Sequence record: OR896825.1
Source of the DNA: Escherichia phage Delraymugoa
Strand: one strand, 5' to 3'
Length of the DNA: 64,000 nucleotides
Part shown: positions 1 to 63,772 of the stretch, in pieces
Layout of the letters: the number at the start of each line of letters is the position of its first letter
Numbering within the stretch: the stretch's first letter is position 1
Made by a program: the position numbers and the translations under genes
The notes under the pieces: model-generated
Seen by the model: only the letters and a program-made list of their open reading frames with translations
Told to the model about the DNA's origin: nothing
The model's database searches: none

Positions 1-1014
1 AATGCGGATTCTACCAAACCAGCAAGGATTAGATTTAATGGAGTGGAGATCGTTGGCACTGGCTATGAAAATGGCCTAAATTTTAAAGTTCTTACTCCAA
101 CTGGACAGCTACACGAAGAAAAGGTATTCTATGGTCGCGGTGCTGTTTTGGCAATGCGTGATTATCTTTCTTTGCTGAAAGGTGACTATATCATTGCGAT
201 GGCAACGCATGGAGAATTGTTTGCAGATCCGATAAGTGATGTTGTATTTTCTAAGATGGGATCTGTATCATTCCCGAATCACATTTTGTTACAGCAAATG
301 CCTCGTGTATCCTATGCAGCAATTTATTCTACTAAAATGGGTAAAATTGTGTGCGAAGGGATGCAAGCGACCAACGGGGAAGGACAAGATTCATCTATAC
401 AAATTGAGAAAGTCTATGATACTATAGATGATCTTGCTATAACAGGAACACCACAACGATTTTTAGATTATCCGGTTGAGTATGTTAGCGAAGATGCCGA
501 ACATTTCGAGCTAATACAATGGCCTCATGATGAGATCAGCGCACCACTTGAAGATTTTAACATAAAAGCAGGTGACAAACTATCAATATCTTTTGAATTG
601 TTCCGTGATAGTGCCGCAGCCGCAGCCAACGTAACAGCGCGTTTCTATCACAACTACTTCACCGATGGACAATATAAAACTGGTGTTCGATACAATGCCA
701 GCAAAAAAGATCAATGGGAAAAGTTTGAAGCCGTCTATACCGTACCGGAAGGAGTTGATAGTGTTACCACTGGTTGCGTTAGATATCCAACCAACTCAAA
801 TGAAGGTATTGTTAAAGTTAGAAACATACTAATAACGCCGATCAGTGGAGTTGTCAAAACGACTGGTCCTACTTCCTTTGGTGTTAACGGTGTTAGAACA
901 ACTCACATTCAGGATAACGGTGATTTTACTAACCCTGTAATGAGTCTTCTTAAACTACCCAGAGACAATAAACATATCACATCCAACAACTTTAAAGAGT
1001 TCGATGTTGATTAA
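1..1014 (+). CDS. long tail fiber protein, gp35-like (5' end lies outside window)
   Basis: Frame 1 is open from nt 1 to TAA at 1012-1014 (338 codons); sits directly upstream of gp36/gp37 homologues; a terminator follows. Confidence 0.5.
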   Translation, partial: NADSTKPARIRFNGVEIVGTGYENGLNFKVLTPTGQLHEEKVFYGRGAVLAMRDYLSLLKGDYIIAMATHGELFADPISDVVFSKMGSVSFPNHILLQQMPRVSYAAIYSTKMGKIVCEGMQATNGEGQDSSIQIEKVYDTIDDLAITGTPQRFLDYPVEYVSEDAEHFELIQWPHDEISAPLEDFNIKAGDKLSISFELFRDSAAAAANVTARFYHNYFTDGQYKTGVRYNASKKDQWEKFEAVYTVPEGVDSVTTGCVRYPTNSNEGIVKVRNILITPISGVVKTTGPTSFGVNGVRTTHIQDNGDFTNPVMSLLKLPRDNKHITSNNFKEFDVD

Positions 1015-1025
1015 CATTTTTAACA

Positions 1026-1056
1026 AGCCGATCCATGTGGTCGGCTTTATTTTTAT
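1026..1056 (+). terminator. rho-independent terminator after gp35-like gene
   Basis: Hairpin AGCCGA-N9-TCGGCT followed by TTTATTTTTAT; nearly identical element occurs inverted at 11381-11412. Confidence 0.6.
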
Positions 1057-1174
1057 ATAGTTGGTTAAAATGTAACCAAAACGAAGAAAGATCTTTAGAA
1101 TATAGAAAATTTGTTTCGGTTAAAAATTAGTCAGTGCCTCCGGCACGTCGCGAAGCGATATTTTGTTAACATTC

Positions 1175-1182
1175 TATAAATA
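1175..1182 (+). promoter_or_regulatory. T4-type late promoter (TATAAATA) upstream of gp36
   Basis: Exact TATAAATA about 34 nt upstream of the gp36 ATG; GAGG Shine-Dalgarno at 1205-1208. Confidence 0.6.
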
Positions 1183-1215
1183 CTCGGAACTATAACTAAT
1201 TTTTGAGGTTACTTT

Positions 1216-2706
1216 ATGGCAGATTTGAAACATGGATCTACTGTAGGCGGATCTCCCATTTGGACGCAAGGAAACTTGACGATCCAGCCAGCGGGGGATC
1301 AGCTTTTCTACAAAGGTCATAAAATCTATACCGCTTTTGATAGACCTTCGGCTACCGATTTTGATGCTGTTAGCGCATCCGAAGGTGGAACATTTCAAAA
1401 GCAAGTTCATTTCGAGGAAGGTTTAAGCGTAGGTAGCGCATCGGCGGGTGAAACCAAAAAGAATGGTATCTTTAAAGGCCAGAGTGATGCTGCTAATTTT
1501 GACGGTGTAAGCTGGGGTTTGCATTCATGGAAGTCAATCGGCTTTGTTAATGCCCGTGATGGCGTTATCATGGCGTATATTGACACCACAACGGGCGAAT
1601 TTAAGTCTAAAGGGACTATCGAAGGGACAACCATTAAAGACACTGGTCAACGCGTCTATAGCCCTGTTAATAAACCAACGAATAATGATTTAGATTTGGT
1701 GTCTCGTCGCGGTGATACTCTCACAGGAACATATAATTTAAACACTGTCACTGTTAAACTATCGGTTGATTCGAAATTAATTGCAAGGGAACGTGATTTA
1801 ATTAATTTTGATGCGACTAAGATCTATTATGGTAACGTTCTTGACACGTTGGTCTTCCGAAGTAAAGATGAGCCTACCATTTTTGTTAATGGCAGAGAAG
1901 GTCGTTTTTATCACACCAACAATAAACCAACTAAAGCCGATGTTGGGCTAGGCAATGTCACCAATGATGCACAGGTTAAACGTGCTGGTGATATTATGGA
2001 AGGTAACTTGCAAGCGCCTAGAATGTTGGCGACAAACGATCCTGCTGGTCCTAATGAATTGGTTCGTTTGAGCTACTTTGAGAGAAAATCAATGGTAGCA
2101 AATCCAACCATCATTGGAAACGTTGATTGGAACACTCTTATTAATCGCGGTATCTATCGTGTGGAAAATGCTGGATCCGGTACTAATAAACCGTCTGATA
2201 GCTATTATAACGGCGTTTTGATGGTATATCGCCCAGAAGATGCGGTCGGTACTCGTCGAATTGTTCAAGTGTATTATCCTGAATCTATTGACCATCCGAT
2301 GTGCTGGCGTTCGTGTTCTAATGAATCATGGACTGCATGGAACTATGTAGATCACCGTAAATTAGCCGATATTCGCTATGTTAACGTCACTGGCGATACA
2401 ATGACAGGACCGTTAACTGTTCCGGCTGCAAACGGTGTTAGAACAGCTAAAACTAACTATAACGGGGATAACTGTTATGCGGCGTTAAGCGGTGCTGATG
2501 GTACTGCTATGATTCACCGCATTAGTGATATTAAAGGGACCGAAAAGCTGGGGATCACCCACGACTCAAAGGTCGTGTTTTTCCGTTCTAGAAACAATAC
2601 TCAAACCGTGGACCGCTATCAGCTTTATCATGAAGGTAATAAACCTACTCCGGCTGATGTTGGCGCGGTTCCACTTAATGCGGTGATTGATTTTGGTACT
2701 TTCTAA
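1216..2706 (+). CDS. 36: long tail fiber subunit gp36-like (496 aa)
   Basis: N-terminus MADLKHGSTVGGSPIWTQGN matches recalled gp36 N-terminal consensus; internal YHxxNKPT repeats shared with gp37; synteny 35-36-37. Confidence 0.75.
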   Translation: MADLKHGSTVGGSPIWTQGNLTIQPAGDQLFYKGHKIYTAFDRPSATDFDAVSASEGGTFQKQVHFEEGLSVGSASAGETKKNGIFKGQSDAANFDGVSWGLHSWKSIGFVNARDGVIMAYIDTTTGEFKSKGTIEGTTIKDTGQRVYSPVNKPTNNDLDLVSRRGDTLTGTYNLNTVTVKLSVDSKLIARERDLINFDATKIYYGNVLDTLVFRSKDEPTIFVNGREGRFYHTNNKPTKADVGLGNVTNDAQVKRAGDIMEGNLQAPRMLATNDPAGPNELVRLSYFERKSMVANPTIIGNVDWNTLINRGIYRVENAGSGTNKPSDSYYNGVLMVYRPEDAVGTRRIVQVYYPESIDHPMCWRSCSNESWTAWNYVDHRKLADIRYVNVTGDTMTGPLTVPAANGVRTAKTNYNGDNCYAALSGADGTAMIHRISDIKGTEKLGITHDSKVVFFRSRNNTQTVDRYQLYHEGNKPTPADVGAVPLNAVIDFGTF

Positions 2707-2710
2707 TTTT

Positions 2711-2738
2711 AGCGGGGATTATCTCCCCGCTTTTCTAA
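2711..2738 (+). terminator. rho-independent terminator or attenuator after gp36
   Basis: Hairpin AGCGGGGA-TTATC-TCCCCGCT followed by TTTCT. Confidence 0.5.
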
Positions 2739-2776
2739 ATAATATTATTCTAATAACCGTTTAAGGATTTTATAAA

Positions 2777-5683
2777 ATGGCAGATTTAAGCAGAATCCAA
2801 TTTAAACGTACTAGCACTAAAGGCCGTCGACCTGATGCTGGTACGATGAATCCGGGGGAATTGGCAATCAACCTTGCGGATCAATATCTTCTTACTAAAA
2901 ATGATTCCGGTGCTATTATCAATTTAAGTTGTCCTCCGGTTTATGACAGCGATGTTACAATGGCGGGTAAGGTTAAAGGAAATAATTATATTTTAAGTAA
3001 AACCGCTAATTATTTTGAAGACCAAACCGCGCGAGATCTTAATTATTTTGGTGCGTTTCGACCGAATAATGCTGATGGTTGGTCTAACTTGATTCTGAAC
3101 ATTCCTCATCCCAGCGGTAAAGCACACGGTCGCGGGTTTGAATTTGAATATGGTTCTAGTTCCTCTCAGGTTAAAACCTATGGCTTTGATAAGGATGGTA
3201 ACAAGAGATTCAGCTTTCGCATGTATCACGAAGGTGATAAACCTACCCCATCGGAATTGAACGTTTATAGCAAACAAGAAGTTGACCGCATGTTTGTTAA
3301 AAACGTTAAAATGTCAACTCCTGCTGATGTAAGTAGAGGATATTTCAAAATTGCTACCGCTATGATCCCACAGCAAGGAAGAATGGCATTTATTCGTATC
3401 TATGGTGGTAATGGATATAACGTAAACTATATGGATCAAGTTGACTTTGTAGAAATCGTGATTCGTGGTGGGAATGGAAATCCTAAAGGTGTTAGTATTG
3501 CCGCATATCGACGAAATGCTTTAAATCAGCTTGAAGTATTTGCTATTAATACATCTGGTGATAACTATGATATCTATGTAAAATATGGTCGATACACCGA
3601 TAACGTTATTGTAGAATTTGGAAAAACGGTCGATGTTAATTTAACGGTTCATGATGTTCCGGCTTTTTCGGAAGCAAAACCTGCTGGTACTACCTTTGAA
3701 GGTCGTATTATTACCATGTTCAACACCGAAAACAAAGCAGGAACGTTGATGTTTGATAATAACTCACAAGCAACCTATGATATTGTGAGTCTTAGCAATG
3801 CACCTGATAATAGCCGAAATTATCTGCGTAAATTCCGTAGCAAAGCGAATGAAACAATATGGCATGAAACTGTTCAAGGTGATGTGTATCGTTTGGCTAC
3901 TGGTTCCACCGACCAAAAAGAAGTATTAAAAATTGTTGGTAGTGATGGTTTATTTGTCAATAGACTTCATCTGCAAGGCAATAACGCGATTCGTATGTGG
4001 CGTCCTACTGGTTGTAGTAACTATTTTGAATATATGGATCAGCGAGACGGGGCTAATAAACGTCAAGGGTGGTTTGGTTTTGGTTCTATAGAAACCAACG
4101 ATTTTCAATGGTATAGTGACGAAGGTAAAAACTTTGTTAAGCTAGAAGCAAGTGGTCAAGTATCTTTAAGCGCAGGTGCAACCAAAATTGTATACACTAA
4201 TGGTCAATATGTAGCTGCCAATTCTGATGCATACCGTATGATCTTTGGTAATTATGGTGCATTCTGGCGTAATGACGGCATTAAAGTTTATCTTCTGTCT
4301 ACTGCCGAAAATGATAGATTTGGTGGCTGGAACGGCAACCGACCATTCATTTACGATTTAACAACTGGTAAAGTTACTTTAGGTGGCGACGGTAACGAAG
4401 GCGCATTAGTTCTCGAAAGAGATAGCCGTGCTGCCCGTTTTGTGGGTGACATTTATGTCGGTAACGGAATGTTAACCTTTGATGCCGGACGATTAAATTC
4501 TCGCGATTACTTCCGGTTTAATCATTGGGGTGATAGCAATAACGCGCGTGATAACATCTTACAGCTTGACGATAGCATGGGTGCACACTTCACCACTGAA
4601 CGTACTTTAGCAACTGGTGCGATTAAAACTAAATTCTTCGGTGATTTGGAATCTGCTGGTCAAATTAAATGGGGTAAAGGGACCGCCGCATCTACGTTTA
4701 CTCTACGTGTATGGGGTAACGATAGTCGTAAACAAATATTTGAATGCGGCGATGAAAGCGGGTGGCATTGGTATACCCAACGCGCGGGCGGTCCGGATAC
4801 TTCTGCAATTGAGTTTGCCATCAACGGTACTGTTAAGCCTCAAGCAATTCACACTGGCGGTAATATCACGCTTAACGGTGCTGATATTGAATTTAAACGA
4901 AGCGGTAACAAGCATTTATGGTTTAGAGATCCGAACGGCTTAGAGTTGGGTCTGTTGTACTGCGATGATGCTGGTGTTATGCGTATTCGTGGGGAGAAAT
5001 CGACCGAAGTATGGAAATTCTCAGCAAAACAGATTCATCTGGAAACTGGTACTGCCGGAAATGGTGTAGGCTTGCTTCGTGGTGCTGTAGGTGGTGGCGC
5101 ATGGACTCAATGGCGAGATCGTGGCACTGGCTTGCAGGTTGATTGTCAGCAATCTGAAAACTCAGCGCATAACGTATGGAGAGCTACGCATCAAGGAAAA
5201 TACCACATCGCGGCAATGGGTGTACACGTTCCTGGTGGTACTATCGGAAATGCTATGGTGCGTATTCATGTACACGATGCAACTTTTGACTTTAGCGCAA
5301 CTGGTGATTTCCAAGCAGGTCGTAACGGTAATTTTAACGATGTGTACATTCGTTCTGATGCTCGCCTGAAAATCAATAAGGAAGAGTATAAAGAGAATGC
5401 CACCGATAAAGTTAATCGCTTGACGGTATACACCTATGACAAGGTTAAATCTTTAACCGACCGTACTGTCATTGCTCATGAAGTTGGTATTATTGCTCAG
5501 GATCTTGAGAAAGAATTGCCAGAAGCAGTAACAACCTCGAAGATCGGCGACGGTGATACACCAGAAGAGATCTTAACAATTTCTAACTCTGCTGTCAACG
5601 CTCTTTTAATTAAGGCGTTTCAGGAAATGAGCGAAGAATTGAAAGCCGTTAAAGCTGAACTAGCGGAACTTAAAAAGAATTAA
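2777..5683 (+). CDS. 37: long tail fiber distal subunit gp37-like with C-terminal intramolecular chaperone (peptidase S74-type) domain
   Basis: N-terminus RIQFKR..RP..GELAINL..DSG.II matches gp37; C-terminus has SDARLKINKEEYKENATDKVNRL autocleavage-type motif plus coiled-coil tail. Confidence 0.85.
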   Translation: MADLSRIQFKRTSTKGRRPDAGTMNPGELAINLADQYLLTKNDSGAIINLSCPPVYDSDVTMAGKVKGNNYILSKTANYFEDQTARDLNYFGAFRPNNADGWSNLILNIPHPSGKAHGRGFEFEYGSSSSQVKTYGFDKDGNKRFSFRMYHEGDKPTPSELNVYSKQEVDRMFVKNVKMSTPADVSRGYFKIATAMIPQQGRMAFIRIYGGNGYNVNYMDQVDFVEIVIRGGNGNPKGVSIAAYRRNALNQLEVFAINTSGDNYDIYVKYGRYTDNVIVEFGKTVDVNLTVHDVPAFSEAKPAGTTFEGRIITMFNTENKAGTLMFDNNSQATYDIVSLSNAPDNSRNYLRKFRSKANETIWHETVQGDVYRLATGSTDQKEVLKIVGSDGLFVNRLHLQGNNAIRMWRPTGCSNYFEYMDQRDGANKRQGWFGFGSIETNDFQWYSDEGKNFVKLEASGQVSLSAGATKIVYTNGQYVAANSDAYRMIFGNYGAFWRNDGIKVYLLSTAENDRFGGWNGNRPFIYDLTTGKVTLGGDGNEGALVLERDSRAARFVGDIYVGNGMLTFDAGRLNSRDYFRFNHWGDSNNARDNILQLDDSMGAHFTTERTLATGAIKTKFFGDLESAGQIKWGKGTAASTFTLRVWGNDSRKQIFECGDESGWHWYTQRAGGPDTSAIEFAINGTVKPQAIHTGGNITLNGADIEFKRSGNKHLWFRDPNGLELGLLYCDDAGVMRIRGEKSTEVWKFSAKQIHLETGTAGNGVGLLRGAVGGGAWTQWRDRGTGLQVDCQQSENSAHNVWRATHQGKYHIAAMGVHVPGGTIGNAMVRIHVHDATFDFSATGDFQAGRNGNFNDVYIRSDARLKINKEEYKENATDKVNRLTVYTYDKVKSLTDRTVIAHEVGIIAQDLEKELPEAVTTSKIGDGDTPEEILTISNSAVNALLIKAFQEMSEELKAVKAELAELKKN

Positions 5684-5725
5684 GGAAAAATCCCAGGGAA
5701 GGGAAACTACTAAGGAGAAACGGCT

Positions 5726-5965
5726 ATGGTCTATAATATCGTCATTGGTGCTTTGTCTAATTTCGGAATGAAATTATTGTCAAAGTTAATTAGTGAAAAG
5801 ATGCTCACTAAAATTTTCTTCTATTGCGCTCGTCGTCTTGCGGCTTATACCAATACGCCAATTGATGATCGTTTTGTGGAAGAACTTTATAAGGAGTTTA
5901 ATAAAGATCAGTCAGAAGATAGTAACGAGCAAGATAAACCTAGTGATAGTCAACTACCTAAATAA
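5726..5965 (+). CDS. hypothetical protein (79 aa) between gp37 and holin
   Basis: ATG with AAGGAG Shine-Dalgarno; hydrophobic N-terminus, acidic C-terminus. Confidence 0.4.
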   Translation: MVYNIVIGALSNFGMKLLSKLISEKMLTKIFFYCARRLAAYTNTPIDDRFVEELYKEFNKDQSEDSNEQDKPSDSQLPK

Positions 5966-5998
5966 GAGTACACTGTCATAGTTATCTTAGGGCATTAT

Positions 5999-6655
5999 AT
6001 GCAAGTTTCTGAAAAAGGGAAAGACTTTGCTATCTCAAATGTCCTGCGCGCTATTTTCACAACTAAAAGCACGGAGTTGCTCGTACTTCGTGTTTTTGCT
6101 GCCGTCGTGTTGTCCATATTAGCATTTGTCGTTTATAGTAAAAACGAGTTATTTGCGCTTTATAAAGAGACTCGTTATGAGACTTATGCTCACATTCTCC
6201 AGGTAGAGAAAGACCGCAATTTTGATAATGCAGCACAGGAGCAGTTACAGATAGTTCATGTGTCGGCTGATGCCGATTTTTCTGCTGTTTTTAGTTTTCG
6301 TCCGAAAAACCTAAACTATTTTGTTGATTTGGTGGCATATGAAGGAAAGCTACCTCACACAATCGATGAAAAAAATTTAGGCGGATTCCCTATCAATAAA
6401 ACGAGTGAAGAATATCGTAGGCATCTTTTAGGTAAATCATATTTTACCGATAAAGATTTCCAGTATATTCCATCAAGAGAAAAGAAATTAGAGAATATCG
6501 ATATAGGTTTCATGTATTCTTGTCCTATATTCAATCTCGATAATGTCTATTCTGGTAGTATCGCCATTTCATGGAAGAATAAACCGGATATTGACATTGA
6601 GAATTTAGATACTCTTTGCAATCAATCTGCCAGAATCCTCGGAAGGATTAGATAA
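5999..6655 (+). CDS. t: holin t (218 aa)
   Basis: Same length as T4 gpt; shares YETY, LQIVH.S.(D/E)ADFSAV(F/Y)SFRPKNLNYFVD and ARILGR motifs; N-terminal transmembrane segment. Confidence 0.9.
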   Translation: MQVSEKGKDFAISNVLRAIFTTKSTELLVLRVFAAVVLSILAFVVYSKNELFALYKETRYETYAHILQVEKDRNFDNAAQEQLQIVHVSADADFSAVFSFRPKNLNYFVDLVAYEGKLPHTIDEKNLGGFPINKTSEEYRRHLLGKSYFTDKDFQYIPSREKKLENIDIGFMYSCPIFNLDNVYSGSIAISWKNKPDIDIENLDTLCNQSARILGRIR

Positions 6656-6660
6656 CTTAA

Positions 6661-6692
6661 AGGGGAAGCCTTTCGGCCTCCCCTTCTTTTTA
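6661..6692. terminator. bidirectional rho-independent terminator at the late/early convergence point
   Basis: AGGGGAAGCC-TTTC-GGCCTCCCCT hairpin flanked by T-runs; lies between convergent genes t(+) and the 6690-6938 ORF(-). Confidence 0.6.
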
Positions 6693-6938
6693 TTGGCGCA
6701 TAGAAGCCCCTGAATCGCATTTTGACGCTGTATGATGAAAACAGGTAGCGTACCAGTCATCGGCTTGTTTGTCTTCGTCAGAAAACTCATAATTTCGTTG
6801 TATGCCGTTTTCTACTTTGACCAGTTCAATAGCTGTTTCTGGAAGATCAATCAGTCGGACAAAATCACCATCTTCCCACTCTACACGAGCAATATCATAT
6901 CCCATCTCAAAGTATACAATCGCTTGTTCTAATTTCAT
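6690..6938 (-). CDS. hypothetical protein (82 aa)
   Basis: ATG-initiated ORF in compact minus-strand array. Confidence 0.45.
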   Translation of the reverse strand: MKLEQAIVYFEMGYDIARVEWEDGDFVRLIDLPETAIELVKVENGIQRNYEFSDEDKQADDWYATCFHHTASKCDSGASMRQ

Positions 6939-7264
6939 TCTGGAAACTTCCCGTAAACATTCTCTGCCAGCTTACGTGCATCTTTTACAATATCTTTCAT
7001 GTAATGACTATAATTTTTAGCTAGATCAATGATGCAATCAACAAAGAAGTAATAGCGTCGCAGTGCTACCAGCTCAACATCTTCAAGATGACCATTTTCT
7101 CCAATCGCTGAAATATGTTTAAATTCCTTTCGGATCGCGTCCATCGCTACATTAACTTCTTTTATAATATCTTTCGTATTATATGCACCTCGACTAATCA
7201 AAATTTTGGTTAGGTCTTCTGCTTTTTCGTGAAAGTTGTCAATTTCAAACTCGATCATAATCAC
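6935..7264 (-). CDS. hypothetical protein (109 aa), paralog of 7373-7705
   Basis: GAGGTGA Shine-Dalgarno; C-terminus ..AENVYGKFPE resembles ..TENIFGKF of the neighbour. Confidence 0.5.
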   Translation of the reverse strand: MIMIEFEIDNFHEKAEDLTKILISRGAYNTKDIIKEVNVAMDAIRKEFKHISAIGENGHLEDVELVALRRYYFFVDCIIDLAKNYSHYMKDIVKDARKLAENVYGKFPE

Positions 7265-7372
7265 CTCTCATAATTTCACTCTGTTGTGTCAACATTTTTT
7301 CGTGGTTTGCTAATTCTATACCTTGTAATAGCATAACCAGTGCAATTTTCAATGATTCATCATCTTTCATAA

Positions 7373-60350: not shown

Positions 60351-60383
60351 CAAAAACAAAAAAGGCTACCCCGAAGGATAGCC
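60351..60383 (-). terminator. rho-independent terminator after gp38-like gene
   Basis: GGCUAUCC-UUCG-GGGUAGCC with UUCG tetraloop, followed by UUUUUUGUUUUUG. Confidence 0.65.
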
Positions 60384-60390
60384 CATAAAA

Positions 60391-61176
60391 TTACACGCGA
60401 GCACCGTAGATCGTGCCTACTTTATCCCAGCGAGGGGCATTACCAGTAACAGCTTTACCCGCAGCACCACCCGAGTGAACAGTTCCACCAGTACCACCTT
60501 TAATATATGAAGATTTGCCAGCAGCTCCCAAATCTCCACCATCTCCTCCATAATGAACCCCAGAAACAGTGCCTTTACCTGGGGCAGAAATTGTACCAGC
60601 AGATGCTGCCGCTGCGCCGCCTCCTGCCGCACCCGCAGCACCAAATGGACGGCCTCCACCGCCGCCAAATTTCATATCCATTTGAGGGAAAGGATTGTAT
60701 CTAGCACCAGCACCGCCACCACCGCCACCACCAATAATACCATTATTGTTTATTCTTAAACGAGTTCCAATTCCGTTATTTATTGCATTTCCTCCTGCTC
60801 CACCAGCAGAGTTACTTCCGCCATTTCCTCCACGACCTAATACATGAACACCAGAGTTAATAATGAGTGTTACATATTCGTTTGTCAGTGAGCTAGGGAA
60901 ATCAAGACAAGGAACGCCAGTAGATTGGGAAACAATATTACCCGTGATAGTAATTACTACCGGAGTAGATCCTTGTGCTTTCATCCAGTTAATAAGAGTG
61001 TCTTTATTGTAAGAGTTACTAGCACCAATGCTATAATGAATCTCTTTAGAGCGTCCGACCATTGCCGACATATACGCCGGACGACCTAAGCGAACAGCTT
61101 GCATTGCGGCGCTCATCCACCGTTGACCAGTCTCGGACACAGCAGATGATCCTACCCATCCAGAAGATATTGCCAT
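60391..61176 (-). CDS. 38: glycine-rich gp38-like receptor-recognition adhesin (T2/T6 type), 261 aa
   Basis: N-terminus GWVGSSAV.ETGQRWMS and polyglycine motifs (GRGGNGG, GGGGGGG, GGGGRPFG) separating short variable segments, as recalled for T2/T6 gp38; GAGGAAA Shine-Dalgarno. Confidence 0.6.
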   Translation of the reverse strand: MAISSGWVGSSAVSETGQRWMSAAMQAVRLGRPAYMSAMVGRSKEIHYSIGASNSYNKDTLINWMKAQGSTPVVITITGNIVSQSTGVPCLDFPSSLTNEYVTLIINSGVHVLGRGGNGGSNSAGGAGGNAINNGIGTRLRINNNGIIGGGGGGGAGARYNPFPQMDMKFGGGGGRPFGAAGAAGGGAAAASAGTISAPGKGTVSGVHYGGDGGDLGAAGKSSYIKGGTGGTVHSGGAAGKAVTGNAPRWDKVGTIYGARV

Positions 61177-61190
61177 AAAATTTCCTCACA

Positions 61191-61212
61191 AGAAAAGCCC
61201 CAATTAAGGGGC
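61191..61212 (-). promoter_or_regulatory. hairpin (weak terminator or attenuator) upstream of gp38-like gene
   Basis: GCCCC-UUAAUU-GGGGC followed by UUUUCUUG. Confidence 0.35.
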
Positions 61213-61493: not shown

Positions 61494-61522
61494 ATTATGC
61501 AATAACACCGGATCGCTGTCAA
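61494..61522 (-). promoter_or_regulatory. sigma70-type early promoter
   Basis: TTGACA-N17-CATAAT with conserved leader. Confidence 0.55.
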
Positions 61523-63732: not shown

Positions 63733-63772
63733 CCCCAGATTAAAAATATTCAGTTATATTTATAATCTGGGG
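63733..63772 (-). promoter_or_regulatory. 10-bp perfect inverted repeat that sequesters the rI Shine-Dalgarno in read-through transcripts
   Basis: CCCCAGATTA (63733-63742) pairs with TAATCTGGGG (63763-63772); the Shine-Dalgarno GGGGGA lies in the 3' arm. Confidence 0.55.
63757..63764 (-). promoter_or_regulatory. T4-type late promoter TATAAATA for rI
   Basis: Exact TATAAATA on minus strand about 35 nt upstream of rI ATG, inside the inverted repeat. Confidence 0.6.

Follow-up and report, generated by a model that had tools for sequence, protein, structure and literature searches.

A Peptidase_S74 chaperone domain at the C-terminus of gp37 and a displaced gp38 adhesin in the RB49-like Escherichia phage Delraymugoa

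Introduction

A distal long tail fibre subunit, gp37, that is cleaved and then capped by gp38 is the predominant T-even design, known from the S16 crystal structure and from T2/T6 biochemistry. Both gp37 cleavage and gp38 capping have been published for T2 and T6 (PMC3157838), and the C-terminal intramolecular chaperone (IMC) of the S16 fibre is removed by autoproteolysis (PMC7289586), exposing a docking surface for gp38 (PMC7917993). S16 gp38 itself comprises an attachment domain, a beta-helix and a polyglycine sandwich. T4 gp37 occupies the homologous fibre position with a similar N-terminal and shaft architecture but has no S74 domain, binds the receptor by an extension of its own and depends on gp57A and a gp38 that is not part of the virion structure as chaperones; the first-pass annotation of the DNA studied here had correctly stated this need for gp38 and gp57 (PMC3157838, PMC7289586). 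In RB49, a self-cleaving gp37 domain, stated on the basis of citations and homology, and a gp38 cap have already been described (PMC9569957), and g38 has been relocated far from g37, a small ORF standing where it would otherwise lie (Trojet 2011). Host-range mutations of RB49-like phages have been found in gp38 (PMC9569957), and in Krischvirus the similarity of gp38 determines which receptor is recognised (PMC12032242).

Here we analyse the long tail fibre genes of Escherichia phage Delraymugoa (OR896825.1) in a window of 64,000 nucleotides, the whole stretch of DNA under study. The gp37 chaperone and displaced g38 of this phage are real and ordinary, and these features, with gp37 self-cleavage and the gp38 cap, are already published for RB49 and its relatives. 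The co-occurrence of a gp37 chaperone and a separate gp38, which the first-pass annotation had called unexpected, is the standard T2/T6/S16 arrangement and has been stated for RB49 (PMC9569957).

Gene 37 and its neighbours

The window contains the following tail fibre genes and associated elements:

43..1014 (+): gene 35 (hinge), truncated on its 5′ side where the window begins (PHROG 1154, profile positions 53-379 of 520)
1175..1182 (+): T4-type late-promoter motif TATAAATA upstream of g36-g37 (exact consensus match only)
1216..2706 (+): gene 36, distal connector of the long tail fibre, 496 aa (PHROG 16472 full-length, PHROG 1425)
2777..5683 (+): gene 37, long tail fibre distal subunit precursor, 968 aa (ORF with ATG start)
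5726..5965 (+): small ORF, 79 aa, Dc5/RB49ORF251w-like (PHROG 402, RB49 annotation)
60391..61176 (−): gene 38, encoding a monomeric adhesin of the tail fibre, 261 aa, separated by ~55 kb from gene 37

Judged by its sequence, the ORF at 2777..5683 (+) is the gp37 of an RB49-like Krischvirus, and its first-pass assignment stands: it matches PHROG 1699 (‘long tail fiber protein distal subunit’) with an E value of 5e-175 in a profile search, its nucleotide identity to gene 37 of the Krischvirus phages W115, MIZ6 and RB49 is 82-92%, and its surroundings follow the RB49 gene order. RB49, which belongs to the same genus, has the same succession of genes 35-36-37, a small Dc5-like ORF and then holin t; its gene 35 is 1140 nt long, and the counterpart of the ORF at 1216..2706 is annotated there as gene 36. 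The small ORF at 5726..5965 occupies the g38 slot of T2/T4/T6. Within gp37 we delineated the following features:

4025..4354 (+): Gp34_trimer-like domain in the shaft, residues 417-526 (Pfam PF21446, 99.2 bits)
4577..5296 (+): variable mosaic distal shaft, residues ~601-840 (W115 versus MIZ6 comparison)
5297..5353 (+): conserved tip of the mature protein (residues 841-859, ...GRNGNFNDVYIR), on which gp38 is predicted to dock
5354..5680 (+): Peptidase_S74 domain, the intramolecular chaperone at the C-terminus (109 aa, residues 860-968)
5354..5356 (+): Ser860 codon TCT, predicted catalytic nucleophile, with the expected scissile bond Arg859^Ser860 just 5′
5369..5371 (+): Lys865 codon AAA, predicted general base of the Ser-Lys dyad (Ser+5)
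5585-5677 (+): predicted C-terminal helix, residues 937-967 (AF2 model)

Delraymugoa gp37 is a new mosaic allele, MIZ6-like over residues 1-480 and W115-like over residues 521-600 and 681-968. Segments 361-480 and 681-840 share only 49-63% identity with RB49 gp37, whereas the junction is the same and the chaperone domain, also of 109 aa, is 96% identical; the differences from RB49 are allelic and not in kind. As for T4, gp34-like domains are present in the shaft (residues 417-526 match the T4 gp34 structures 4uxe and 5nxf in a PDB search), and PDB sequence and fold searches with gp37 yielded no T4 gp37 chain. Over the 120 residues that precede the expected cleavage site there are 7 His, 18 Gly and one HxH motif (HVH 831-833), the only such motif in the whole protein. 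The stretch previously described as His/Gly-rich, which falls inside the variable distal shaft (residues ~601-840), is thus mildly so, but because of its single HxH motif it is not a needle of the T4 type. A T4-type gp37, that is, a self-binding needle folded by a chaperone in trans, was rejected given this one HxH motif, the lack of a T4 gp37 match in the PDB and the presence of the S74 domain.

The C-terminal chaperone domain

The Peptidase_S74 profile (PF13884) matches gp37 residues 860-919 over its full length (positions 1-58 of 58) with 44.9 bits (E 1.4e-11), and because the curated Pfam cut-off is 22 bits this match is not attributable to chance. PF13884 is present in all 52 database relatives, and the chaperone module as such matches 1,057 phage records. 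The domain sits at the extreme C-terminus (860-968 of 968 residues), downstream of the fibre-shaft domains, and the motif SDARLKINKEEY...TVYTYDK is present. Ser860 and Lys865 are invariant across 44 aligned homologues, with a spacing equal to that of the T5 dyad Ser1264/Lys1269 (PMC4690869). Through the S-D-x-R-x-K motif that the S16 IMC shares (PDB 6F45), the C-terminus aligns to crystallised S16 gp37 (6f45_A), Ser860 being aligned to the S16 SDRRIKK motif. Conservation of the domain is 94-98% within Krischvirus, and its identity to T6, whose IMC is 113 aa long instead of 109, is 68.5%.

An AF2 monomer model of the chaperone domain, with pLDDT values mostly of 83-93, displays the mixed alpha/beta body and long C-terminal helix of S74-type architecture. 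Using Foldseek, we observed that the predicted fold matches the MyRF, K1F and GA-1 chaperone domains (7dc3, prob 1.00, TMt 0.71; 3gw6, prob 0.95-0.98; 3gud, prob 1.00). A PDB sequence search with the C-terminal 268 aa of gp37 returned only S16 gp37 (E 2e-4), with 8jov and MyRF below threshold, so that 3gw6 and 3gud were reached by fold search only. Upstream of the chaperone, the monomer model is of low to moderate confidence (pLDDT 34-84), and the weak gp34-like fold matches that it gave (prob 0.3-0.7) were disregarded.

Profile matching, dyad conservation and the predicted fold confirm, at the level of sequence and model, that the C-terminus of gp37 is a Peptidase_S74 intramolecular chaperone whose Ser/Lys dyad is intact. 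A C-terminal chaperone of this kind is what the first-pass annotation had proposed, and the two computational checks it named agree: the domain search for peptidase S74 scored above the cut-off, and prediction of the C-terminus, as an AF2 monomer, gave an S74-type fold with a helix at 937-967. The domain is indeed C-terminal, although it comprises the last 109 residues (860-968) and not the last 130. Endosialidase K1F CIMCD and T5 pb1 IMC, founding members of Peptidase_S74 in MEROPS and Pfam, have the same Pfam family, Ser-x4-Lys dyad and fold class, and by analogy their folding-dependent autoproteolysis logic would be common with that of gp37. In contrast to these two proteins, in which the unmasked mature product is itself an enzyme or receptor binder, the tip unmasked here would serve as a socket for a separate adhesin.

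The expected cleavage site

The scissile bond of T5 is Thr1263-Ser1264, N-terminal to the catalytic Ser (PMC4690869), and the S16 cleavage site is DLNVS^SDRRIKK (PMC7917993). Since these solved family members cut N-terminal to the catalytic Ser, gp37 is expected by analogy to be cut at Arg859^Ser860, before Ser860 and not after the Ser of SDARLK as had initially been suggested. The gp37 junction NDVYIR^SDARLKI differs very little from that of the fPS phages, DVYIR^SDGRLKI, which has been aligned with the experimentally defined S16 site (PMC7917993), and from that of T6 (SDVYIR^SDSRLKI, continuing NKEE). The residue preceding the cut would be Arg here and is Ser in S16, whose shaft is unrelated before its last five residues; the alignment to 6f45_A begins only at the junction. 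Autoproteolysis of gp37 and the exact bond are thus predicted from homology to S16, T2/T6 and T5. A literature search on gp37 processing in RB49-like phages found no direct biochemical or virion mass-spectrometry evidence.

The gp38 adhesin and the gp37 tip

The separate gp38-like gene that had been noted elsewhere in this DNA is indeed present, at 60391..61176 (−). Its 261-aa product scores 238.3 bits against Pfam GP38 (PF05268) and 65.6 bits against Gp38_N (PF21721), matches S16 gp38 (6f45_D, E 8.6e-49) and is 53% identical to T6 gp38, with the N-terminal motif conserved. Trp7 and Trp20, the ‘prongs’, are both present within a conserved GWxGSSxVxETGQRWMS motif, and the W115 counterpart is annotated ‘tail fiber adhesin Gp38’.

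The T6 genome has g38 immediately after g37, and the two genes adjoin in S16 as well. Unlike in T6, g38 of Delraymugoa is on the opposite strand from g37 at a distant locus, as it is in RB49, while the 79-aa ORF fills its slot. This displacement is the documented RB49 exception and concerns gene order, not a functional requirement. The displaced gene is surrounded by small early-type genes and, in terms of consensus matches only, is flanked by terminator-like hairpins, with a sigma-70-like site at 61522..61494 (−). There are only two exact TATAAATA matches in the window; by this consensus criterion the late-promoter motif is absent within ~2.5 kb upstream of g38, the nearest match being at 63764..63757 (−). 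We assume that g38 is co-expressed with g37.

The gp37 tip (residues 841-859) is 79-100% identical among Krischvirus, and its conservation extends across genera, T6 reading NGSFSDVYIR where gp37 here reads ...GNFNDVYIR. Four of its residues, D855, V856, I858 and R859, do not vary among the 44 homologues. Such conservation fits a docking surface rather than a specificity determinant, and by analogy to S16 and the fPS phages (PMC7917993) we predict that residues 841-859 form the surface on which gp38 docks. On the contrary, residues 681-840 are 99% identical to W115 and 12% identical to MIZ6, while all three phages have the same gp38 (100% identity), so that unrelated distal shafts, sharing only the tip and the chaperone domain, go with an identical gp38. 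Searches of Pfam, PDB sequences and folds detected no carbohydrate-binding or enzymatic domain in residues 601-840. The receptor binder is the gp38 adhesin (60391..61176) and not the gp37 region before residue 860: the earlier placement of the receptor-binding tip in that region is contradicted by the conserved tip and the intact gp38 adhesin in the window.

Discussion

We consider it highly probable that Delraymugoa assembles the T2/T6/S16-type tip of an RB49-like phage, in which a cleaved gp37 is capped by gp38. According to this model, gp37 would be made as a 968-aa precursor whose chaperone, the last 109 residues, would trimerise through a helical bundle and template the folding of the trimeric distal shaft. 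In the correctly folded trimer, the Ser860/Lys865 dyad would cut Arg859^Ser860 in each chain and the chaperone would leave, so that the conserved ...NDVYIR strands would be exposed as a flat, trimeric tip. A single gp38 would then dock on this tip through its N-terminal attachment domain (Trp7, Trp20), and its polyglycine-sandwich loops would be presented to the host receptor. Docking and the 3:1 stoichiometry are here extrapolated from S16, T2/T6 and T5.

The lack of direct Krischvirus cleavage data in the literature could be taken to favour an S74 domain that is a degenerate remnant, uncleaved and retained on the fibre. We rejected this interpretation, which is scarcely credible given the invariant Ser860/Lys865 pair and the strong conservation of the domain both in the genus and in T6; moreover, a retained chaperone would occlude the gp38 docking site, and in T5 an uncleaved IMC blocks function (PMC4690869). 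Hardly more plausible is a T5 pb1-like fibre, in which gp37 just upstream of residue 860 would be the receptor-binding tip and gp38 an unrelated extra. The mature tip of pb1, unmasked by IMC cleavage, does bind O-antigen (PMC4690869), residues ~601-840 vary strongly between the gp37 proteins of Krischvirus, a frequent property of receptor-binding regions, and a related fibre at a Salmonella locus (L008) has no gp38-like sequence within 6 kb. This reading is nevertheless at odds with the last ~20 residues before the cut, which are conserved across genera with four of them invariant, and with an intact gp38 whose attachment domain is conserved. Furthermore, RB49 host-range mutants map to gp38 (E230K; PMC9569957), the receptor recognised is set by Krischvirus gp38 similarity (PMC12032242), and the S16 crystal structure 6f45 shows gp38 capping the corresponding gp37 tip.

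A less remote, though still unlikely, proposal retains gp38 as the primary adhesin and adds the swappable gp37 shaft (residues ~601-840) as a second, lateral determinant of host range that would weakly bind O-polysaccharide alongside gp38. The association of unrelated shaft modules (12% versus 99% identity) with a 100% identical gp38 suggests selection on the shaft, and swaps of g37 fragments altered host range in gp38-encoding T4-like phages, according to a review that also speculates about polysaccharide-binding motifs in gp37 (Letarov 2023, PMC10743462). Efimov 2022 finds the recognition of multiple O-antigens by a small gp38 ‘counter-intuitive’. On the other hand, the above searches of residues 601-840 returned no domain with a carbohydrate-binding or enzymatic role, shaft mosaicism can also come from recombination or from antibody or defence escape with no binding needed, and the proposal already exists in the literature as speculation. 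If true, a role for the shaft would partly vindicate the earlier idea that the pre-chaperone part of gp37 matters for recognition, and our observation of an identical gp38 on unrelated gp37 shafts bears on the existing speculation that the shaft influences host range.

The main relevance of these results is to annotation: in RB49-like phages, host specificity is to be read from, or engineered in, gp38 at its distant locus and not the C-terminal part of gp37. As a folding module, the last 109 residues are disposable in the finished fibre, but recombinant fibre constructs must retain them, with Ser860 and Lys865 intact.

The C-terminus of gp37 is an S74-type chaperone

In a megablast search the window falls into Krischvirus, the genus of RB49-like relatives of T-even phages, with gene 37 sharing 82–92% nucleotide identity with W115, MIZ6, RB49, Phi1 and others. 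PHROG and Pfam scans agree on genes 35, 36, 37 and t and on the small ORF between 37 and t, and the gene order from 35 to t matches that of RB49.

Long-tail-fibre locus and adhesin gene
gene 35, truncated by the window edge: first in the RB49-like order
1216..2706 (+): gene 36, encoding gp36 of 496 aa
2777..5683 (+): gene 37, the ORF of 968 aa that the first-pass annotation had reported
5726..5965 (+): Dc5/RB49ORF251w-like ORF of 79 aa (PHROG 402, function unknown)
5999..6655: holin t, last in this order
60391..61176 (-): g38, complete gp38 adhesin gene (261 aa, 23% Gly)

While gp36 reaches 496 aa in the window and in RB49, the T6 protein has 216 aa (gene of 651 nt). The N-terminus of gp36 in the window (MADLKHG...) is similar to that of gp37 (MADLSRI...), and the two proteins share hits to several PHROG fibre families. 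The 79-aa product has a hydrophobic N-terminus and an acidic, Ser-rich C-terminus; its ORF lies between g37 and holin t in every Krischvirus locus retrieved, the slot in which T2, T4 and T6 carry g38.

An S74 chaperone had been proposed at the end of gp37, and Pfam, alignment, AlphaFold2 and Foldseek agree in confirming it. Peptidase_S74 (PF13884) matches residues 860–919 over the whole profile (44.9 bits, cut-off 22). SDARLK begins at residue 860, so that Ser860 and Lys865 share the Ser-x4-Lys spacing of the family, and the chaperone domain comprises the final 109 residues. Ser860, Asp861 and Lys865, as well as the directly preceding D855, V856, I858 and R859, are invariant among 44 aligned database homologues, all PF13884-bearing. 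In an AlphaFold2 monomer model of residues 680–968, the chaperone part has pLDDT mostly of 83–93 and ends in a long helix (937–967). Foldseek searches of the PDB with the modelled C-terminus retrieved 7dc3, which is the ICA domain of MyRF (prob 1.00, TMt 0.71), as well as 3gud, the chaperone of GA-1 (prob 1.00), and 3gw6, the intramolecular chaperone of the K1F endosialidase (prob 0.95–0.98), the last two identities being confirmed in PMC9608196. By tblastn the module alone occurs in 1,057 phage records, including T6 (68.5% identity), many T4-like phages of Escherichia, Salmonella, Klebsiella and Aeromonas, and T5-like pb1 proteins.

Predicted cleavage and the gp38 adhesin

In T5 pb1 the bond cut is Thr1263-Ser1264, the catalytic Ser departing with the chaperone and being activated by Lys1269 (PMC4690869). 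The S16 site is DLNVS^SDRRIKK, with DVYIR^SDGRLKI as counterpart in other T-even relatives (PMC7917993). The junction reads NDVYIR-SDARLKI in the window and SDVYIR-SDSRLKI in T6. By analogy with the T5 and S16 sites, cleavage is predicted before the Ser, at Arg859^Ser860, rather than after it as initially annotated, and mature gp37 would correspond to residues 1–859.

The adhesin matches GP38 (238.3 bits) and Gp38_N (65.6 bits) in Pfam and the crystallised S16 gp38 (6f45_D, E 8.6e-49). It is 53% identical to T6 gp38, with the N-terminal attachment motif conserved and Trp7 and Trp20 present. The alignment of the gp37 C-terminus with S16 gp37 (6f45_A) starts at the junction and runs onward. In the published model, gp37 trimerisation is followed by autocleavage of the intramolecular chaperone, exposing a docking surface, the last beta-strand of gp37, into which gp38 Trp residues insert (PMC7917993; PMC7289586). 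For Krischvirus we infer gp37 cleavage, its exact bond and gp38 docking by homology; the literature consulted gave no demonstration of these for the genus.

Oriented opposite to the late gene g37, g38 is surrounded by small early-type genes. Terminator-like hairpins lie on either side (61212..61197 and 60384..60363) and a sigma-70-like promoter consensus nearby (61522..61494). On its strand the late-promoter motif (TATAAATA) has a single site, 63764..63757; this nearest exact match is 2.6 kb upstream of g38.

A conserved tip on a variable shaft

The region just before residue 860 had been proposed as a receptor-binding tip. Among five Krischvirus relatives, the chaperone domain is 94–98% identical to that of the window and residues 841–859 are 79–100% identical, with mosaic segments at residues 361–480 and ~601–840. 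Moreover, gp38 is 100% identical (261/261) between the window, MIZ6 and W115, while over gp37 residues 681–840 the window shares 99% identity with W115 but just 12% with MIZ6. One and the same adhesin thus appears to mount on unrelated shafts that have only the conserved tip and chaperone domain in common. A conserved tip and variable shaft under an identical, intact adhesin argue against a receptor-binding tip; they fit a docking socket, not a specificity determinant, as the probable role of the residues before 860. Host-range mutations of RB49-like phages are located in gp38 (PMC9569957). It is conceivable, though we consider it improbable, that the swappable shaft itself influences host range. 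Letarov's 2023 review (PMC10743462) raises such an influence as speculation, on the ground that T4-like phages encoding gp38 had their host range altered by swaps of g37 fragments. A search of the swappable shaft for binding or enzymatic domains found none. A T4-type needle before residue 860 was rejected, as this region holds one HxH motif only; T4 gp37 structures were absent from the matches of every search with gp37.

The gp37 allele resembles a recombinant. Residues 1–480 are 94–99% identical to MIZ6, and residues 521–600 and 681–968 are 95–100% identical to W115 (about 89% over 601–680); across the genus, mosaic hot spots lie at 361–480 and 601–840. A Gp34_trimer domain (PF21446, 99 bits) occupies residues 417–526 (4025–4354) and a second segment, residues 637–702 (~4685–4882), is similar to the C-terminal region of T4 gp34; fibre S of phage Mu (5yvq) is a further match. 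Proximal and distal fibre proteins thus have shaft modules in common.

Related fibres in other records

An E. coli assembly (GCA_031535085.1) encodes, at 5001–5912 of the retrieved locus, a 303-aa chimera that starts with Gp38_N and half of the GP38 adhesin (its first half) and continues into a gp37-type tip (...NDVYIR^SDRRLKIN) followed by Peptidase_S74. The chimera occurs on two contigs, directly downstream of a 1140-aa fibre also ending in S74. It may have arisen by recombination or may serve as an unusual adaptor. On a 1.15-Mb contig of Salmonella enterica (GCA_007030085.1), a gp37-like fibre (4150–7266 of the retrieved locus) ends in S74 and shows 45–50% identity along most of its length; the locus also encodes a lambda-type portal and an S78-capsid fusion. 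As the gene call takes in just the final 421 aa of the fibre, the gene is possibly split. Within 6 kb, nothing resembling gp38 was found. In phage Brandy (MZ504876.1), gene 37 (401–3330 of the retrieved locus) is annotated as two overlapping CDS (401–2038 and 1984–3330), pointing to a frameshift or else an error of sequencing in the record.

Chaperone and adhesin together

The first-pass annotation therefore holds for the chaperone and fails for the receptor-binding tip. It had also called an S74 chaperone alongside a separate gp38 unexpected, a view at odds with the literature: according to Trojet et al. 2011, gp37 is cleaved and capped by gp38 in T2 and T6, and the prevailing gp38 of the T4 superfamily is the adhesin rather than the form known from T4. 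The displacement of g38 in RB49, with a small ORF occupying its slot, is likewise published and is precisely how the window is laid out. For RB49-like and T2-type phages, an S74-ended gp37 paired with gp38 is commonplace and has been described before.
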